Source of the DNA: Candidatus Saccharimonadota bacterium
GTDB taxonomy: Bacteria; Patescibacteriota; Saccharimonadia; Saccharimonadales; UBA4665
Direction: 5' to 3'
DNA: 32,000 bases
Assembly (NCBI GenBank): GCA_002952755.1
Contig: CP025011.1
Span: forward strand, 120,001-152,000
The notes under the pieces were generated by a model that had not been told where the DNA came from, did no database searches, and was given only the letters and a program-made list of their open reading frames with translations. Shown in pieces: positions 5,817 to 31,749 of the stretch. Positions within the stretch are counted from its first letter, which is position 1. Each line of letters begins with the position of its first letter. A program made the position numbers and the translations under genes.

Positions 5817-6485
5817 ATGAAAAATGTCTTTTTATTTGGAGCGAGTACCACGCACGGGGTCGGTGGACCGCGCGGCGGCTGGGCCGATAAACTCAAGGCC
5901 GGATTGCACCGCGATTTGTATGGCGAGGACGCTGCAGGCGAATGTTGTGAAGTGTATGAATTAGGCGTCCCCGGTACGAACTCGGCAGATTTGCTTGAGC
6001 GATTTGAGTCTGAGATCCATGCCCGTTTGATCGGTCAGACCAGCCCAGAAGATACAATTATCGTTATGCAAATTGGCATGAACGACTCTAAGGCGGTGGG
6101 CACTCCTGATGGATTCGTAACCACGCCCGAAGCATTCAGCCAAACGGCGAACTATTTGTTTGATATCGCCAAGAAATGCAGCACTCACGTTGTGGCACTT
6201 GGCCTCACGCCAGTTGACGAACGAAAGGTGACACCCAAGATTAATCCATTAACCGGGAATAAGTCGTACTTCTCGAACGACCGCATCGAGGCTTTTGATG
6301 TAGCAGTGCAAGAGGTGTGTCTGGCCTCCGGGGCGACATTTGTCCCATTATTCGCGGCCGTGCCGGATACCTGGGCGGATCGGTATTTATTTACCGATGG
6401 CATTCACCCCAGCGACCAAGGGCACGAGTGGATTCGTTCCCAAGTCGAACCCGAAGTCCGCAAGGCCTTAGGGCCGCTCGCTTGA
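5817..6485 (+). CDS. SGNH/GDSL-family hydrolase
   Basis: Block I is VFLFGASTTHG, block III is GMNDS and block V is DGIHPSDQGH. An AGGGGAG SD lies upstream. Confidence 0.8.
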   Translation: MKNVFLFGASTTHGVGGPRGGWADKLKAGLHRDLYGEDAAGECCEVYELGVPGTNSADLLERFESEIHARLIGQTSPEDTIIVMQIGMNDSKAVGTPDGFVTTPEAFSQTANYLFDIAKKCSTHVVALGLTPVDERKVTPKINPLTGNKSYFSNDRIEAFDVAVQEVCLASGATFVPLFAAVPDTWADRYLFTDGIHPSDQGHEWIRSQVEPEVRKALGPLA

Positions 6486-8220: not shown

Positions 8221-8296
8221 CGGGGTGTGGCGCAGTTGGTAGCGCGCCTGGTTTGGGACCAGGAGGTCGAAGGTTCGAGTCCTTTCACCCCGACCA
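8221..8296 (+). tRNA. tRNA-Pro (anticodon TGG), CCA encoded
   Basis: Manual cloverleaf: acceptor CGGGGTG/CACCCCG, anticodon arm CCTGG-TTTGGGA-CCAGG, T arm GAAGG-TTCGAGT-CCTTT. Confidence 0.93.
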
Positions 8297-8383: not shown

Positions 8384-8459
8384 CGGGGTGTGGCGCAGTT
8401 GGTAGCGCGCAGCGTTCGGGACGCTGAGGTCGAAGGTTCGAGTCCTTTCACCCCGACCA
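8384..8459 (+). tRNA. tRNA-Pro (anticodon CGG), CCA encoded
   Basis: The sequence is identical to the first tRNA-Pro except for the anticodon arm, CAGCG-TTCGGGA-CGCTG. Confidence 0.93.
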
Positions 8460-17436: not shown

Positions 17437-17514
17437 TGGGGCGAGCTATGGGTCTCGAACCCACGACCTTCGGAGCCACAACCCGACGCTCTAACCAACT
17501 GAGCTAAGCTCGCC
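17437..17514 (-). tRNA. tRNA-His (anticodon GTG) with encoded G-1 and CCA
   Basis: The reverse complement is G-GCGAGCT-TA-GCTC-AGTTGGTTA-GAGC-G-TCGGG-TTGTGGC-TCCGA-AGGTC-GTGGG-TTCGAGA-CCCAT-AGCTCGC-C-CCA. G-1 sits opposite C73, which is the His identity signature. Confidence 0.9.
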
Positions 17515-17567
17515 ATAAAATAACAGATTCACTTTACCAGTTTCAGTCTAAAAAATCCAGCTGTTAG

Positions 17568-17676
17568 TGAGGCCAGTATCCACTCGCTCCAAATAGAGCG
17601 TTACATGCAGGCTGACTTACGTCGGTCTGGCTGCACTACGCCTGACTCTATTTGGAGCGAGTGGATACTGGCCTCA
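17568..17676 (-). repeat. Hairpin element copy A: perfect 31-bp inverted arms (17568-17598 / 17646-17676) around a 47-nt core
   Basis: The arms TGAGGCCAGTATCCACTCGCTCCAAATAGAG and CTCTATTTGGAGCGAGTGGATACTGGCCTCA are exact reverse complements. The reverse complement of the core matches the copy-B core at about 41 of 48 positions. Confidence 0.85.
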
Positions 17677-17703
17677 GCTTCAGATACTGTATACTAAAAG
17701 CCT

Positions 17704-18144
17704 ATGGGCATAGCAGCACGAGCAATTATTATTGAAGGCAACAAAATCCTGGTGATGAAGCGTGTCAAGTACGGCAGTGAGTACTTTACGCTCGTTGGCG
17801 GCCGCTTGAATGAGGGCGAGAACCTCGAGCAAGCCCTGGTTCGCGAAGTGATGGAAGAGACGGGCCTACAGGTTACTGCCGCCCAACTGGTGTATGTCGA
17901 AGAACACGCCGCACCATATAATCACCAGTATATCTTCTTGTGTAACGTCGCACCGCATCAGGGTGTAGCTCTGCAAGAATATTCTGAAGAAAATATGATG
18001 AACAAGCTCGACGCCAACGTGCATGAGCCCTTGTGGGCTGAGGTGAAAGCATTCGAGAATCTGCCTTTTCGTACGCCCCAACTCCACCAAGCAATCCTCG
18101 AAGCCTTTAAAAAGGGCTTCCCGCGCGAACCGGTTAAGCTGTAG
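17704..18144 (+). CDS. Nudix hydrolase
   Basis: The Nudix box is GGRLNEGENLEQALVREVMEETGL. TATACT-N8-ATG lies upstream. Confidence 0.85.
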   Translation: MGIAARAIIIEGNKILVMKRVKYGSEYFTLVGGRLNEGENLEQALVREVMEETGLQVTAAQLVYVEEHAAPYNHQYIFLCNVAPHQGVALQEYSEENMMNKLDANVHEPLWAEVKAFENLPFRTPQLHQAILEAFKKGFPREPVKL

Positions 18145-26091: not shown

Positions 26092-28638
26092 TTACAACTG
26101 AGGCTGGATCTCGTTCAGGGCTTGGTTGAGCGTTTCGACGGTGACGCCCGCTTGCTGCATGCTTGCTAATTCGGTATCCAGATGGGCTGGGGTAATTGAG
26201 TAGTCCTCTTGGGCGGCGGAAGGGTCTGCTTCAACGCCGTGATACACCAGCACTAGCCAGGTCTTGTCGTGCTGAGCTTGGGCGACCCACGCGGCTACCT
26301 GAGCGGGTGTGGTGCCATCTAAAATGTTTTGGACGCGGATGTTGTAGAAGTCAAAATCGCCCTTGCTGTTAAAGCCGTCGTCAGTTGAGCGGTGTGAGCG
26401 GAAGTACTTTTTGGCTTCGGTGAGCACGGTGCCATTGTATTCGCCATATGGAGTGGCGAAGTTCGCGCCTACTACACCGTCATTGCCAAACCAAGTCCGT
26501 AACTGTGCTTGGCTGTTGCCCATCTCGGCATCAATTTTGGCAACTGTCAGTGTAGGTAGGTGGGGATGGGTAACAGTATGGTCGGCAATTTCGTTGCCGT
26601 CGTTTTTAAGGGCTTGCATCATGGCCACGGTCATGTACTCGGGGTCCTGACTGGTGCTGCTGATGATGTAGAAGGTGGCCTTCATGCCGTATTTGTCGAG
26701 CAGCGGCAGAGCGTTCGTGTAATGGGTGCGCAGGCCGTCGTCAAAGGTGAGGGTGACCAGGGGGCGGTTGAATTGTGCAGGTGTGTATGGCGCAAGGCTG
26801 AAATCGTCATTTTGTACCCAGCCAACCTTGCTGACAACCTGGTAGAAGGTGATCGTTTTGGCAGTGGCAGGCGCGACAAACTGCGCTTTTACTTGGGTCC
26901 AAGCAGTCGGGCTCGCGGGCGCAGTGCCGACGTAGTAGTAGGATACGGTGCCGTCGGCGGCAGTGACCTGGGCGTCGACTTCGCTGTCAATGTTGGACTC
27001 GTACCAGTTGGTGTATTGATAGTTGGTGCCAGGGGTAACAGGTACTTCATCGAAGTACCACTTGGCATCGCCATTGGTGTAGCTGGTGATGGTAGTTTTG
27101 AGGCTGTGTGTGCCGGTATGCCCGGTGTTCTGGTAGGTGGCGCTATGGGTGTTGGTCCCCCAGCTGCCATCGTGCCAGTTGCTGGGGAGGCTATTGGTGT
27201 TCGTTTCGACCGATGGATTCGGGATGAGATTCGTTGCCGCAGGTGGGGTGACTGGTGAGTTGTTTACGGTGACTACGACAGGGGCTGAGGTGGTAGACAG
27301 GTGCGCGCCATTGGTAGCAATCGCCGTAAGCGTGTGGCTCCCGTTGGAGGCCGTCGTTGTATCCCAGTTTAGGCTATAAGGCTCGCTGGTAAGCGGGCTG
27401 CCGAGGTTAGTTCCGTCAAGCTGGAACTGAACCGAGGAGACAGCGACAGCATCGCTAGCGTGGGCGGTGATAGTCTGCGAAGCGCTCAAGGTGGCATTAT
27501 TTGCGGGGCTGGTAATATTTACGCTTGGTGCTGTCGGGTTGTTCACAGTGACACTCTCGGTGGTTGTGGCAGTTAGATTGGCACTGTTGGTGGCAACGGC
27601 GGTGAGAGTGTGAATGCCATTGGTAGTTTTCGTAGTATCCCAGGCAAATGTGTAGGGCGCAGTTGTTGCCAGCGCGGCATTCGTGCCGTCCAGCTTAAAT
27701 TGGACTGAGGTGATTCCTGTGGCATCGCTGGCGTTGGCTGTAACGGTGGTCAGGCTGTTAACAGTGCTATCTGCTGCTGGTGCCACAAAACTAATTGTAG
27801 GTGTGGTCGGAGGCGACACGTTATTTACATTCACCGTAACGTTGGTTGCAGTCGTGGTCAGATTGGCGGTATTAGTGGCAACGGCGCTGAGGGTATGCGT
27901 GCCATTGGCCACCTTAGTGCTGTCCCAGGCCGTGGCGTAAGGTGCACTTGTAACAGGCGCACCGAGGTTGGCTCCATCCAGTTTAAATTGGACTGAGCTT
28001 AGGCCTTGAGCATCGCTAGCGTTAGCCGCCACATTCACGGCCGAACCGCTCACTGTGGCATTTGCCGTAGGCGAAGTCATGGCTACAGTGGGTGCGGTCG
28101 GCGTGCTGCCTGGACCGGTTAATGAATAATCGTCAGTCGTCAGTGAGCCGTTGGCAAAGATAACATGAAAGAAGGTTAGGCTGGCCGCGTTAGCGGGAGT
28201 AGTGAAGGCGTAGCTGGTCTGCTTCCAAGTGCTGCTGCTGGCCGCATTGCCAACCCAGTAGTAGCTGGTGGTGCCGGTGGTAGTTGTCACGACGGCGTCA
28301 ACTTCGCTGGCGACAGTGCTTTTGTACCAGTCGCTAAAGGTGTAAGCGGTATTGGCGGTAACGGTAACCGGCGAAAAATACCACTTGGCATCGCCACTTG
28401 TGTAATTTGCAAGGGCCACCGTCGCACTACGTGCGCCAGTGTGGCCTGTGGTGGCGTAGGTGAAGGTGGTAGTATTGGTGCCCCAGTTGCCTTTGTTCCA
28501 GCCGGCTGGAGATGCTCCATTGGCGGTTTCAAATGATGGGTTAGCGACTAGATTGGTTGCAGCACGCGCATTGGCCAGTGGCAGTAGGCTGGCAGCAATA
28601 AGAAATAGGCCTGCCAGCAGTGATCTTACTTTTTTCAT
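26092..28638 (-). CDS. Secreted multidomain polysaccharide deacetylase: signal peptide, CBM-like module, 3 Ig-like repeats, second CBM-like module, CE4/NodB domain
   Basis: The signal peptide is MKKVRSLLAGLFLIAASLLPLANA. Two paralogous modules have the pattern NL.(A/P)NPS.ET...GDAKWYF. Three repeats have the pattern SVQF(K/Q)LDG.N...PY...WD.T...NG.HTL.A.ATN. The NodB motifs are TFDDG and HTVTHPH. Confidence 0.88.
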   Translation of the reverse strand: MKKVRSLLAGLFLIAASLLPLANARAATNLVANPSFETANGASPAGWNKGNWGTNTTTFTYATTGHTGARSATVALANYTSGDAKWYFSPVTVTANTAYTFSDWYKSTVASEVDAVVTTTTGTTSYYWVGNAASSSTWKQTSYAFTTPANAASLTFFHVIFANGSLTTDDYSLTGPGSTPTAPTVAMTSPTANATVSGSAVNVAANASDAQGLSSVQFKLDGANLGAPVTSAPYATAWDSTKVANGTHTLSAVATNTANLTTTATNVTVNVNNVSPPTTPTISFVAPAADSTVNSLTTVTANASDATGITSVQFKLDGTNAALATTAPYTFAWDTTKTTNGIHTLTAVATNSANLTATTTESVTVNNPTAPSVNITSPANNATLSASQTITAHASDAVAVSSVQFQLDGTNLGSPLTSEPYSLNWDTTTASNGSHTLTAIATNGAHLSTTSAPVVVTVNNSPVTPPAATNLIPNPSVETNTNSLPSNWHDGSWGTNTHSATYQNTGHTGTHSLKTTITSYTNGDAKWYFDEVPVTPGTNYQYTNWYESNIDSEVDAQVTAADGTVSYYYVGTAPASPTAWTQVKAQFVAPATAKTITFYQVVSKVGWVQNDDFSLAPYTPAQFNRPLVTLTFDDGLRTHYTNALPLLDKYGMKATFYIISSTSQDPEYMTVAMMQALKNDGNEIADHTVTHPHLPTLTVAKIDAEMGNSQAQLRTWFGNDGVVGANFATPYGEYNGTVLTEAKKYFRSHRSTDDGFNSKGDFDFYNIRVQNILDGTTPAQVAAWVAQAQHDKTWLVLVYHGVEADPSAAQEDYSITPAHLDTELASMQQAGVTVETLNQALNEIQPQL
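27259..28101 (-). repeat. Three tandem ~93-codon Ig-like domain repeats inside the deacetylase gene
   Basis: Protein-level repeats at aa ~180-273, 274-367 and 368-460 were read from the translation. Confidence 0.8.
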
Positions 28639-28758
28639 AGATAGTTCCTCACCTTAGTCCCACTCTTAAGTAATACAGTATAATTACATAGAACTACTTT
28701 ATGGTCTATAAGTCAACTCTATTTTATATGAAACATAAGTTGCATGGGCTTACAGGCA

Positions 28759-28858
28759 CCCCCTGCCACCTATATGCAGCAGAGTCAGGCGTAGTGCAAC
28801 CAGACCGACTTTAGTCGGCCTGCGTGAAAACGCTCTGCTGCATATAGGTGGCAGGGGG
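28759..28858 (+). repeat. Hairpin element copy B: perfect 26-bp inverted arms (28759-28784 / 28833-28858) around a 48-nt core
   Basis: The arms CCCCCTGCCACCTATATGCAGCAGAG and CTCTGCTGCATATAGGTGGCAGGGGG are exact reverse complements. The core is TCAGGCGTAGTGCAACCAGACCGACTTTAGTCGGCCTGCGTGAAAACG. Confidence 0.85.
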
Positions 28859-28910
28859 CCCTTCGCTACCCCTCTTGCGCCACGATCCAGAAAGGTTACT
28901 ATACGTATAT

Positions 28911-30374
28911 ATGAATAACTTCGTCTTTTTATTGTCCCACTATCCGCTGGGGCATGCCTTTGGAGCGCGCTACGAGTTGCCTATCCCCTTGGTATTGTTC
29001 GTACTTGGAGGCGGTGCTGTCGTGCTGCTATCTTTTTTGCTCGTGGTACGGCAAAAGGTTGCTCCGGCCTCTGCTGCCGAGTATCCTGACACAACACATG
29101 TGCGAGGTATACAGGGTTTTTGGGCTGCTTTGAGCCTTTTGGTTCTTACAGCGTGTATTACTGTGGGTATAGCGGGCAGCCAGGAGGCTGCAGAGAATAT
29201 TGTGCCAACGTTATTTTGGCTGATTATATGGATTGCCGTGCCGCTTTCAGCCGGTATTGTAGGTGACTGGACACAAGTAGTTAACCCTTTTGCCATTGTG
29301 GCAAAACTTACCGATAACAGGGCACTCCGTAAACGTGCGCTTCTTCGGGAAGCATCGCTTGCCTGGCCGGTTCGCGTGGGTTGGTGGCCGGCTGTTGCTG
29401 TTTTTTTCATACTGGCATGCGGCGAACTGATTTATAACCAGACGGTCACACGGCCAGTAGTTATTGGCGCAGGACTCTTGATTTATTTTGTACTGAGTGC
29501 TTTTGCCGGTCTGGTCTATGGCAAACAGTGGCTGGAGTGCGGCGAAGTGTTTACGGTGCTATTTGCAACGTGGGGGCGGCTAGGTTTTTTCCGTTTTGGC
29601 GCTCCGGGACGCCGAGGTTTTGCGGGTGGGTTGCAGGTGCCTTTTGAGGCTAGCGTCAGTCGCGTTACGTTTGTGTTGCTGCTCTTAGTAAGCGTGGGTT
29701 TCGACGGCCTACTTTCTACACCGCTGTGGAGCCGCATGCAGCATCACTTGCCGAACGGTCTGGCAGTGGGGACGACGGCTTATCTATTGCTGGCAACACT
29801 TATTTTTGCAGCCTTGGCATTCGTCTTTTGGGCAGTATTTAGCTTACTGGCCCTGGCAGTAAGCAAAGTGGGCGTACACAAGCTGGGTGCCACACCCGCA
29901 CTGGCGGGATTACTGCCGTCGCTGGTGCCAATCTCCTTTGGCTACTTGCTGGCGCATAATCTGGAATATTTAGTGCTCAATGGTCAGCTTTTATTTCCGC
30001 TTATCGGTAATCCCGTAGGCAAAGAAAGCTGGCCAATCCATCTGCCACACCCCTTCAATGACAGTTTCGAGCCAAACCGGCACCTGCTGCCCAGCTCTTT
30101 TTATTGGTATGCCTCGGTGATTGTTATTGTGATTGTGCACATTGTGGCTGTCGTATTGGCGCATCGTTACCTGGGTAGAGCCACTAAGAATGAAGAGCAA
30201 GCGCGGCGGTCGGAATATCCGTGGATTGTGGCAATGGTGGCCTATACGATGTTCAGCTTATGGCTCCTGGCTCAGCCGTTAGTCAAAGAAAAGGCGGACG
30301 AAACGGGCATCGCGCCAACCCGTCAAACTGTGGCTGTTGCCCAAACTAATGCGGTGATTACAGTAGATTATTAG
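28911..30374 (+). CDS. Large polytopic membrane protein (487 aa, ~12 TM), unknown function
   Basis: Hydrophobic segments run throughout the protein. The track start at 28848 (GTG) lies inside the right arm of hairpin copy B, so the ATG at 28911 (MNNFVFLLSHYPLGH..., with TACTAT 8 nt upstream) is preferred. Confidence 0.7.
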   Translation: MNNFVFLLSHYPLGHAFGARYELPIPLVLFVLGGGAVVLLSFLLVVRQKVAPASAAEYPDTTHVRGIQGFWAALSLLVLTACITVGIAGSQEAAENIVPTLFWLIIWIAVPLSAGIVGDWTQVVNPFAIVAKLTDNRALRKRALLREASLAWPVRVGWWPAVAVFFILACGELIYNQTVTRPVVIGAGLLIYFVLSAFAGLVYGKQWLECGEVFTVLFATWGRLGFFRFGAPGRRGFAGGLQVPFEASVSRVTFVLLLLVSVGFDGLLSTPLWSRMQHHLPNGLAVGTTAYLLLATLIFAALAFVFWAVFSLLALAVSKVGVHKLGATPALAGLLPSLVPISFGYLLAHNLEYLVLNGQLLFPLIGNPVGKESWPIHLPHPFNDSFEPNRHLLPSSFYWYASVIVIVIVHIVAVVLAHRYLGRATKNEEQARRSEYPWIVAMVAYTMFSLWLLAQPLVKEKADETGIAPTRQTVAVAQTNAVITVDY

Positions 30375-30377
30375 CAT

Positions 30378-31160
30378 ATGAAACGACATTTTTCGGCGGG
30401 TATGACTCTACTGCTGGCCGGGTTGTCCGTTATAACGGTAGCAAGTTTCAGCCATGCGACCGTTCCCTTGTACGATGGAGTTAATTTCCCCGATGAGCCA
30501 TATCGCTATGTGAAATCGCCGGCAGCGCAAAAACAGAGTACTCCAGCGCCTACTACCATCTCTAAGGTATATCAACTCAACCGGCCGGTATATGGTGTGT
30601 ATATTAATAGCGTAGAACTGGGGCCGCAGATATATGTCTATATCGACCGGAGCGCGCTGATTATTCCTAAGGGCGCAACCGAGTTTACTTTAAGCGCCGA
30701 ACCATTGGCGCCAACGGATCAGCCGGGCGGCGGTCCTATTGCCGGGAATGTATATAAGATACTGGCAGCGACCGAAAATGGTGCGCTCGTGATCGCAAAC
30801 CAGCATACCACCGCGCAGCACACAATCGACTTACGTTTGCCACAAGGGTATCCGGCGACAGGTCAGATGGTTTTTAGGCCGGCAGGCGGTCAATGGCACG
30901 CGTTACCTACCTCACGCATTGGTACGGATATTTATGAGGCCAATCTGAGCGCCTTTGGTGAGTATGCGCTTAGTATTCCCAATCAAAAGTCAGTTACAGC
31001 CACCAGGCGCAAAATGCTTCCTTATGGTTTGATTATTTTTTGTGGGATGTTTGTGGTGGCGATGACAGCAATCTTGCTCATCATCCGTACATCGGAGCGC
31101 AAAAAAAGTCCGTTAACTATCGAAGAAAAGAAAAACAAAACTCGGGGCAGAGATGCCTGA
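30378..31160 (+). CDS. Secreted protein with a C-terminal TM anchor (260 aa), unknown function
   Basis: The signal peptide is MKRHFSAGMTLLLAGLSVITVASFSHA and the C-terminal TM segment is LPYGLIIFCGMFVVAMTAILLII, followed by a Lys-rich tail. The gene starts 3 nt after the upstream stop. Confidence 0.7.
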   Translation: MKRHFSAGMTLLLAGLSVITVASFSHATVPLYDGVNFPDEPYRYVKSPAAQKQSTPAPTTISKVYQLNRPVYGVYINSVELGPQIYVYIDRSALIIPKGATEFTLSAEPLAPTDQPGGGPIAGNVYKILAATENGALVIANQHTTAQHTIDLRLPQGYPATGQMVFRPAGGQWHALPTSRIGTDIYEANLSAFGEYALSIPNQKSVTATRRKMLPYGLIIFCGMFVVAMTAILLIIRTSERKKSPLTIEEKKNKTRGRDA

Positions 31161-31749
31161 GGTAGCGACACGGCAGAACGGGGCAAAAGACCTACCGTTA
31201 CGTGCGGTGGTGCTATACGCCGGATTTACGGCTGCAATTGGCTTACGGGTAGCATTGGGCGGGCATGACATCGCGCAGTCAGCATCGGCGGGCTTGGTTT
31301 TTGCAGCAAGCCTGGTATCGCTGGGGGTAGTGACAGTTAGGCCGCACTTTATAGCCAGCTGGCGTACGGTGCTTACGGGACTCCTGGGCGGACTTTTTCT
31401 CTTACTCCCGGCTATCATTTTGTGGGCATGGATTGGAAACGCACATCCGCCGCTGGGCAATTATCCATGGTGGGCGAGTGTCGTGACGCTTGTGGCCCTA
31501 GCCGAAGAGTATTTCCTTCGCGGTGTATGCTACGAAGTCATTAGTTCCTGGAAAGGCGAACTAACAGCGATTATAGTAACCGCCCTTGCTTTCGCAGCCC
31601 TGCATGTTCCTCTATATGGATGGCAGGCGGCACCGTTGGACCTCGCTGTTGGCTTATGGTTTGGTGCACTGCGTATGGCTAGCGGTACTTGGCTGGCGCC
31701 GGGTATTGCGCATACCCTTGCCGACCTGGCAGCGTGGTTCCTGCGCTAG
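31153..31749 (+). CDS. CPBP-family intramembrane glutamic endopeptidase (CAAX protease/Abi-like)
   Basis: It has an AEEYFLRG (EExxxR) motif, an FAALHVPLY (FxxxH) motif and a late HTLADL motif. It overlaps the upstream gene by 8 nt. Confidence 0.8.
   Translation: MPEVATRQNGAKDLPLRAVVLYAGFTAAIGLRVALGGHDIAQSASAGLVFAASLVSLGVVTVRPHFIASWRTVLTGLLGGLFLLLPAIILWAWIGNAHPPLGNYPWWASVVTLVALAEEYFLRGVCYEVISSWKGELTAIIVTALAFAALHVPLYGWQAAPLDLAVGLWFGALRMASGTWLAPGIAHTLADLAAWFLR

Follow-up and report, generated by a model that had tools for sequence, protein, structure and literature searches.

The 32,000-nt window analysed here (the whole stretch of DNA, numbered from its first letter) carries two copies of a hairpin element of about 100 bp in which a conserved centre is enclosed by perfect arms that are specific to each copy and unrelated to one another, and this combination is the main oddity of the element. 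We read it, with a probability of roughly 45%, as a lineage-restricted, non-autonomous dispersed hairpin repeat in which the conserved unit is the centre of ~56 nt. Two copies, here called A and B, were seen directly in ~49 kb of a genome of ~1.45 Mb, and a third is indicated by breaks in short-read assemblies.

Copy B, which the earlier note had singled out, is a non-coding element of 100 bp (28759-28858). Its left arm (28759-28784, 26 nt) is 100% complementary to its right arm (28833-28858, 26 nt), and the two enclose an asymmetric core of 48 nt (28785-28832) that lies on the plus strand in what we term the 'F' orientation. The earlier description of perfect 26-bp arms around a 48-nt core is accurate in every respect, including the core sequence as first quoted. 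Copy A, also non-coding, measures 109 bp (17568-17676), with a left arm of 31 nt (17568-17598) that is 100% complementary to the right arm (17646-17676, 31 nt) and a core of 47 nt (17599-17645) whose F orientation is on the minus strand. The core of B matches that of A in inverted orientation over 49 nt at 88% identity (blastn E 1.5e-10), so the opposite orientation of the two cores noted previously is real. Aligned in the same orientation, the centres of A and B have a mean column identity of 94% (alignment A3) and differ by six substitutions and one 1-nt indel.

The sole part common to the two copies is the unit made up of AGAG, the core, and CTCT, which is 56 nt long in B (28781-28836, plus strand) and 55 nt in A (17595-17649, minus strand) and scores 88 and 84 bits, respectively, with a covariance model of the centre (R1). 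Beyond these innermost 4 bp (AGAG/CTCT) the arms of A and B are unrelated, each pair being 100% self-complementary, with no unpaired base, over 31 bp in A and 26 bp in B, and the outer ends of the elements are CCCCC/GGGGG and TGAGG/CCTCA. A TTGCAC-17-CATATA arrangement is found in copy B and is missing from copy A. The copies are solitary and 11 kb apart, and no direct repeats flank them, the adjoining sequences being CTGTTAG/GCTTCAG for A and CAGGCA/CCCTTC for B.

A 25-nt motif from the core was observed twice, compared with 0 matches in 100 shuffles, and the fold z-scores of the elements are -10 to -14, their perfect arms giving very stable folds. The resemblance is far beyond chance, and we agree with the proposal that this is an independent repeated hairpin element. 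Searched for perfect hairpins whose arms reach 14 nt or more, the ~49 kb of the genome yielded A and B only, and a scan with arms of at least 12 nt in ~68 kb from relatives detected no perfect hairpins with arms longer than 16 bp. Neither the ~49 kb of the genome nor the ~68 kb from relatives contains an unoccupied perfect palindrome with arms of at least 17 bp, which indicates that the arms come with the core.

Both centres are predicted to adopt the same inner fold on one strand (minus in B, plus in A). It is a helix of 9 bp, CAGGCYGAC/GUCGGUCUG, closed by a 4-nt loop and flanked by short closing pairs and the AGAG/CTCT stem, reading CAGGCCGAC-UAAA-GUCGGUCUG in B (28801-28822) and CAGGCUGAC-UUAC-GUCGGUCUG in A (17608-17629). 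One G.U pair occurs in the inner helix of B and two in that of A, corresponding to A.C mismatches on the other strand. The better-conserved inner helix lies on the strand opposite to the one on which the mini-hairpin had previously been drawn. Of the seven positions at which the centres differ, six are in unpaired columns; the remaining one, a stem change from C to U, keeps a G.U pair. This agrees with the weak support for selection on structure that had been suggested. A hypergeometric estimate for this placement of the differences gives P ~0.01-0.03, with a structure derived from the same two sequences, and the inner helix shows no compensatory double changes between the two copies. Since the substitutions gather in unpaired positions and the G.U pairs are confined to one strand, there is a hint that the single-stranded form, be it RNA or DNA, matters for the element. 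Selection of this kind is not needed by a purely neutral element and so counts against a neutral dispersed repeat; a single-strand DNA transposition intermediate would nonetheless account for the strand-specific inner hairpin.

Contigs assembled from short reads of three to four separate runs agree with the window at 100% identity (0 mismatches) and independently confirm both arms of A together with the right arm of B and 26 nt of the B core (28807-28832, present in contigs L060, L061, and L062). Contigs L093 and L094 end at 17597 and contigs L058 and L059 start at 17647, positions that are the inner ends of the A arms, where an assembly with k=31 should break on a perfect inverted repeat of 31 nt. 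Constructed from the window and nothing else, a k=31 graph predicts ends at 8292, 8430, 17597, and 17647. Contig ends at 8292 and 8430 mark a pair of tandem tRNA-Pro genes (TGG and CGG; 8221-8296 and 8384-8459), 91% identical and 163 nt apart, which also break short-read assemblies. On the right side of B, contigs start at 28807 in two independent runs, this being the position of the first 31-mer that reaches 28837, the first arm-specific base past CTCT. The graph of the window alone has no branch at 28807, and a further copy elsewhere in the genome is therefore implied. Judging from these contig break points, a third copy is likely, with another arm attached to an identical 30-nt half of the core (GACTTTAGTCGGCCTGCGTGAAAACGCTCT); a polymorphism at 28806 in both runs would also give such a break and is less likely. 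The right end of contig L058, at 27076, is not predicted by the k=31 graph of the window alone, and at least 30 nt around 27047-27076 probably recur at another genomic site, such as a paralogous gene with Ig domains.

Both copies are intergenic and occupy short spacers between divergently oriented genes, so both spacers are divergent promoter regions. Copy A lies between a tRNA-His gene (17437-17513, minus strand) and a NUDIX gene starting at 17704 on the plus strand. To the left of copy B is a gene for a polysaccharide deacetylase with three Ig-like repeats (26092-28638, minus strand), and to its right a three-gene operon on the plus strand (28911-31749) that encodes a 487-aa membrane protein, a 260-aa protein, and a CPBP/Rce1-like protease. 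Copy B does precede this membrane/CPBP operon, as had been noted, and the same gene order is found in relatives. The three-gene unit (28911-31749; L088 10001-12828; L089 10001-12779) is widespread in Saccharimonadales-like and some actinobacterial metagenome bins. Its polytopic membrane protein of ~480 aa belongs to no Pfam family and has the invariant motifs HAFGxRYELPIP, LAGLLPSL.PISFGYLLAHN, and EYPW, and its protein of ~260 aa likewise has no Pfam hit. In the deacetylase gene, three DNA repeats (27413-28026) with a period of 273/288 nt, 70-79% identical to one another, encode the three Big_7 Ig-like domains. Just past the right end of the window, a 508-aa protein (L060 2944-4470, minus strand) combines an N-terminal HTH domain (XRE-type) with an EPSP-synthase domain, an unusual fusion. 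No transposase, reverse transcriptase, recombinase, or Y1_Tnp was detected among the called genes in ~49 kb.

Consensus scans revealed neither a promoter nor a terminator inside the element at either copy. A promoter-like TTGCGC-16-TACTAT arrangement (28875-28902, plus strand) begins 16 nt past copy B and ends 8 nt before the ATG at 28911; it was read directly from the sequence and is below the threshold of the consensus scan, and its layout is conserved in relative L090 as TTGCAC-16-TATTAT. The NUDIX gene has a -10-like hexamer, TATACT (17690-17695, plus strand), 13 nt past copy A and 8 nt before its ATG at 17704, and in relatives L091 and L092, too, a GTATACT precedes the NUDIX ATG by 6-8 nt. 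These -10-like hexamers (TATACT, TACTAT, and TATTAT) end 6-9 nt before the ATG, without a Shine-Dalgarno sequence (17690-17703, 28897-28910, and L090 105-117). Because they lie at the same distances from the ATG in relatives, the arrangement suggests that the membrane-protein and NUDIX genes are leaderless, both here and in relatives. The ATG of the deacetylase gene, on the other hand, is preceded by AAGGTGAGG.

The mechanical longest open reading frame over the first gene of the operon begins at a GTG at 28848, which is within the right arm of B, and the end of copy B is 52 nt from the ATG at 28911, both as previously noted. The GTG is not the start codon. The public protein P0001 (487 aa) is 100% identical to the product of ATG 28911, and gene calls on the short-read contigs also start there. 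In an alignment of eight homologues (A1), the proteins begin 10-14 residues before the invariant HAFGxRYELPIP, like the version starting at ATG 28911, and the 21-aa extension from GTG 28848 has no counterpart. The right arm of B is non-coding because the true start is ATG 28911, and translation from 28848, which would have made the arm coding, is contradicted by the homologues and public gene calls alike. A mis-called start, as the earlier note put it, therefore applies to the mechanical frame alone, real gene calls being at 28911; nor does annotation hide the element inside a coding sequence, since P0001 already starts at this position. Translated frames of the core, compared with proteins for spurious ORFs over other copies, gave 728 word candidates, none with E <= 10.

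The element appears to be restricted to a narrow lineage. Source names of the homologues include Candidatus Saccharimonadales and Patescibacteria, which points to a Saccharibacteria-like bacterium as the probable host. The closest relative found, L090, has 69% amino acid identity in the membrane protein. In its orthologous spacer L090 keeps both a left block, shared with 28711-28746 at ~75% identity (alignment A2) and ending in the window 12 nt left of element B, and a right block (TTGCAC-16-TATTAT-...-ATG). The ~44 nt that separate these blocks in L090 are unrelated in sequence and contain no hairpin and no palindrome. Neither hairpin nor core was detected in L088, L089, L091, or L092 by hairpin scan and covariance model, and R1 applied to 128 kb, including the ~68 kb from relatives, recovered A, B, and a contig-edge fragment of B only. 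The NUDIX genes of relatives have no upstream tRNA-His, so synteny at copy A provides no empty site there.

In exact-match scans, an 18-mer from the core produced one chance hit (Shewanella) among 185,579 species genomes, a 17-mer produced 22 hits in JGI metagenome contigs, and a 14-mer produced 56 hits in IMG/VR, the contexts of the last two sets being all unrelated; the inner-hairpin pattern had 0 hits in IMG/VR, and each of these collections is apparently without the source genome. The element had no blastn match in plasmid and phage collections. Rfam models at the gathering threshold identified only tRNAs in the whole window, and a permissive search with the element and with each core alone returned microRNA-hairpin noise or nothing (34 bits against a gathering threshold of 140 bits).

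Among known systems the element most invites comparison with REP and REPIN sequences, which it resembles in being ~100 nt long, extragenic, dispersed, and without coding capacity or direct target duplication, and in being predicted to form a long hairpin in single-stranded DNA or RNA. The core even has a GTAG tetranucleotide, as known from the REP consensus, 5' of its inner hairpin, and REP hairpins, like the inner helix, tolerate G.T-type mismatches on one strand. REPINs have tens to hundreds of copies, whereas two are known here in ~49 kb, or three with the inferred one, and no RAYT (Y1 transposase) gene, which in REP systems is single-copy and flanked by REPs, is present among the called genes in ~49 kb. 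In REPINs the two inverted ends are highly conserved and the spacer less so (PMC3116915); here the pattern is reversed, with a conserved centre and unrelated arms.

Miniature inverted-repeat transposable elements (MITEs) such as Correia, ERIC, and RPE are small, non-autonomous, hairpin-forming intergenic repeats often found near promoters, with terminal inverted repeats conserved throughout a family and direct target-site duplications. The copies here measure 100 and 109 bp and are non-coding, two being present in ~49 kb and a further one being implied by contig break points. Only 4 bp (AGAG/CTCT) of the arms are common to the copies, these are internal, and there is no direct duplication. The attC sites of integrons are imperfect palindromes that vary in sequence from site to site and are recognised by their folded single-strand structure; they have conserved outer R''/R' boxes (RYYYAAC/GTTRRRY) and extrahelical bases, and stand in cassette arrays next to an integrase. 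We rejected this identity on the basis of perfect arms, unconserved outer ends, a conserved centre, solitary copies, and no integrase among the neighbours. Retron non-coding RNAs have a1/a2 inverted repeats around msr and msd directly upstream of a reverse transcriptase gene, and were rejected as the neighbours are tRNA-His, NUDIX, deacetylase, and the membrane/CPBP operon, with no reverse transcriptase; a centre of 48 nt is also too short for msr plus msd. The stable stem-loop recalls intrinsic terminators and microRNA-like precursors, and the weak Rfam hits were all to generic microRNA hairpin models, with scores far under the gathering thresholds. According to two reports, template switching homogenises the arms of inverted repeats and extends the identity between them (PMC8604942, PMC3820800). 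Acting on quasi-palindromes irrespective of their sequence, it would yield arms that are perfectly complementary, locus-specific, and variable in length. Template switching is, however, a mutational process and not a family, and by itself leaves a shared centre of 56 nt at several loci unexplained.

Reading the element as a dispersed repeat, we infer that the long arms of A and B have no common ancestor and were built at each locus at the DNA level, given that they are unrelated, perfect, and unequal in length, that direct repeats are absent, that the putative third copy diverges after CTCT, and that no unoccupied palindromes were found. The centre of ~56 nt would land in an intergenic spacer, moved perhaps by a single-strand DNA transposase of the kind that mobilises REP and REPIN sequences, which is one candidate. 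The nascent strand would fold back, seeded by AGAG/CTCT and the inner hairpin, and the polymerase would copy 22-27 nt of one flank in inverted form by an intrastrand template switch. Switches of this type are known to extend and homogenise quasi-palindromes, and one acting here would leave perfect arms that differ in sequence and length between copies, without direct target duplication. Against this reading, we know of no described mobile element that makes inverted target duplications of 22-27 bp. The element probably has no dedicated host function and would survive only where its insertion is tolerated, in this case in the short divergent-promoter spacers of a compact genome.

It is possible, if doubtful, that the element is instead a structured small RNA family or an RNA-level cis element with a conserved centre and a variable perfect stem. 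It would be transcribed from the inner-helix strand (minus in B, plus in A), its centre forming a loop bound by a protein or ribonuclease and its stem of 26-31 bp serving as a double-stranded RNA substrate (e.g., of RNase III) or as a variable guide-like segment. The sharing of the inner fold on one strand only, with G.U pairs, is consistent with such an RNA, as is the placement of all but one of the seven differences in unpaired positions, with the only stem change wobble-compatible; there are no compensatory double changes with n=2, and the structure was drawn from the same sequences. The inner-helix strand points toward a neighbour at both loci, NUDIX 27 nt past A and the deacetylase 120 nt past B, but no promoter-like site is present upstream, no terminator downstream, and no conserved promoter in the core. 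Part of the left arm of A, ACTCGCTCCAAATA (17582-17595), is an exact 14-nt antisense of 5833-5846, which covers codons 6-10 (the FGAS motif region) of a GDSL-lipase ORF (5817-6485), and 1 of 500 shuffled arms equals this match; it could be due to chance, or could be a hint to the origin of the arm or to a pairing partner. No target match of this quality exists for the arm of B, where 135 of 500 shuffles do equally well. Rfam gives generic hairpin noise only, functional RNAs seldom have mismatch-free stems of 26-31 bp, and the family is missing from every sampled relative. A cis element acting as DNA between divergent promoters, either a cruciform serving as insulator or supercoil sink or a protein site on the centre that modulates the flanking promoters, we consider unlikely. 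Such a role would fit the position of both copies between divergently oriented genes, 16 nt upstream of TTGCGC in B and 13 nt upstream of the NUDIX TATACT in A, as well as the very stable folds given by the perfect arms. In the shared F orientation, moreover, the elements end at similar points, B 52 nt short of ATG 28911 and A 54 nt short of the 5' end of tRNA-His, although with two copies the common spacing may be coincidence. Relatives run the same promoters without the hairpin, and the element is therefore not an ancestral regulatory part. The tRNA-His, NUDIX, deacetylase, and membrane/CPBP genes are functionally unrelated, which argues against a shared regulon, and protein-binding palindromes normally conserve their arms and not their centre.

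The copy-specific arms and the lack of direct target duplications could also be accounted for if the centre were mobile and specifically targeted the midpoint of long perfect palindromes already present in the genome, in which case the arms would be old host sequence. This is very unlikely: the ~49 kb of the genome and ~68 kb from relatives hold no unoccupied palindrome of the requisite length (arms of at least 17 bp), the orthologous spacer of L090 is without a palindrome, and AGAG/CTCT would have to pre-exist at the centre of every target. A terminator, an invertible promoter switch, a chance hairpin, and an assembly artefact, even taken together, have a negligible claim. In their favour, the element is a strong intergenic hairpin, and inverted repeats enclose its core as they do the segment of an inverton. 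The stems of 26 and 31 bp, with loops of 48 and 47 nt and no T-run within 2 nt of the stem, do not fit an intrinsic terminator, in which a short G+C-rich stem with a small loop is directly followed by a T-run, nor does the location at the starts of divergent genes in place of the 3' end of a transcription unit. The elements had been described as not ordinary terminators, and no terminator-like site was found at either copy; the accompanying statement that no T-run follows them holds for B on either strand and fails on the minus strand of A, where a T6 follows after 12 nt. This T6 run (17544-17555, minus strand) is located between copy A and the promoter region of tRNA-His, at too great a distance from the stem for a canonical terminator. 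An inverton would have both orientations of the segment coexisting in a population. Contigs of two independent runs contradict this, entering the core from the right arm in one orientation only, as does the break at 28807, which is 26 nt inside the core and not at the arm/core junction (28833); an invertible segment of 48 bp would also be very short. A chance hairpin was rejected because 0 of 100-200 shuffles reach the observed values, and an assembly artefact because contigs of three to four sequencing runs match A in both arms and B in its right half with 0 mismatches.

It is by their conserved ends that dispersed hairpin repeats of bacteria (REP/REPIN and MITEs) are recognised, and the usual repeat finders would overlook a family in which the centre is conserved and the perfect arms differ from locus to locus. 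In practice, assemblies of short reads break precisely at the arms or cores of these elements. The elements also adjoin promoters in a genome that is very compact, so that start-codon calls and promoter predictions can be misled by them. We think it improbable that the element is something new in kind, whether an inverted-duplicating mobile element or a family of 'programmable' hairpins. If true, the former would be an undescribed mobile element of the candidate phyla radiation, whose centre of ~56 nt spreads with an inverted rather than a direct target duplication of 22-27 bp. In the latter, the conserved loop would be a handle for a protein and the perfect stem a locus- or target-specific sequence, with the 14-nt antisense match of arm A to the lipase gene as a first hint. 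Should the pattern prove to be genome-wide, it would point to either a route to long perfect palindromes at insertion sites or a hairpin with a variable, possibly informational stem.
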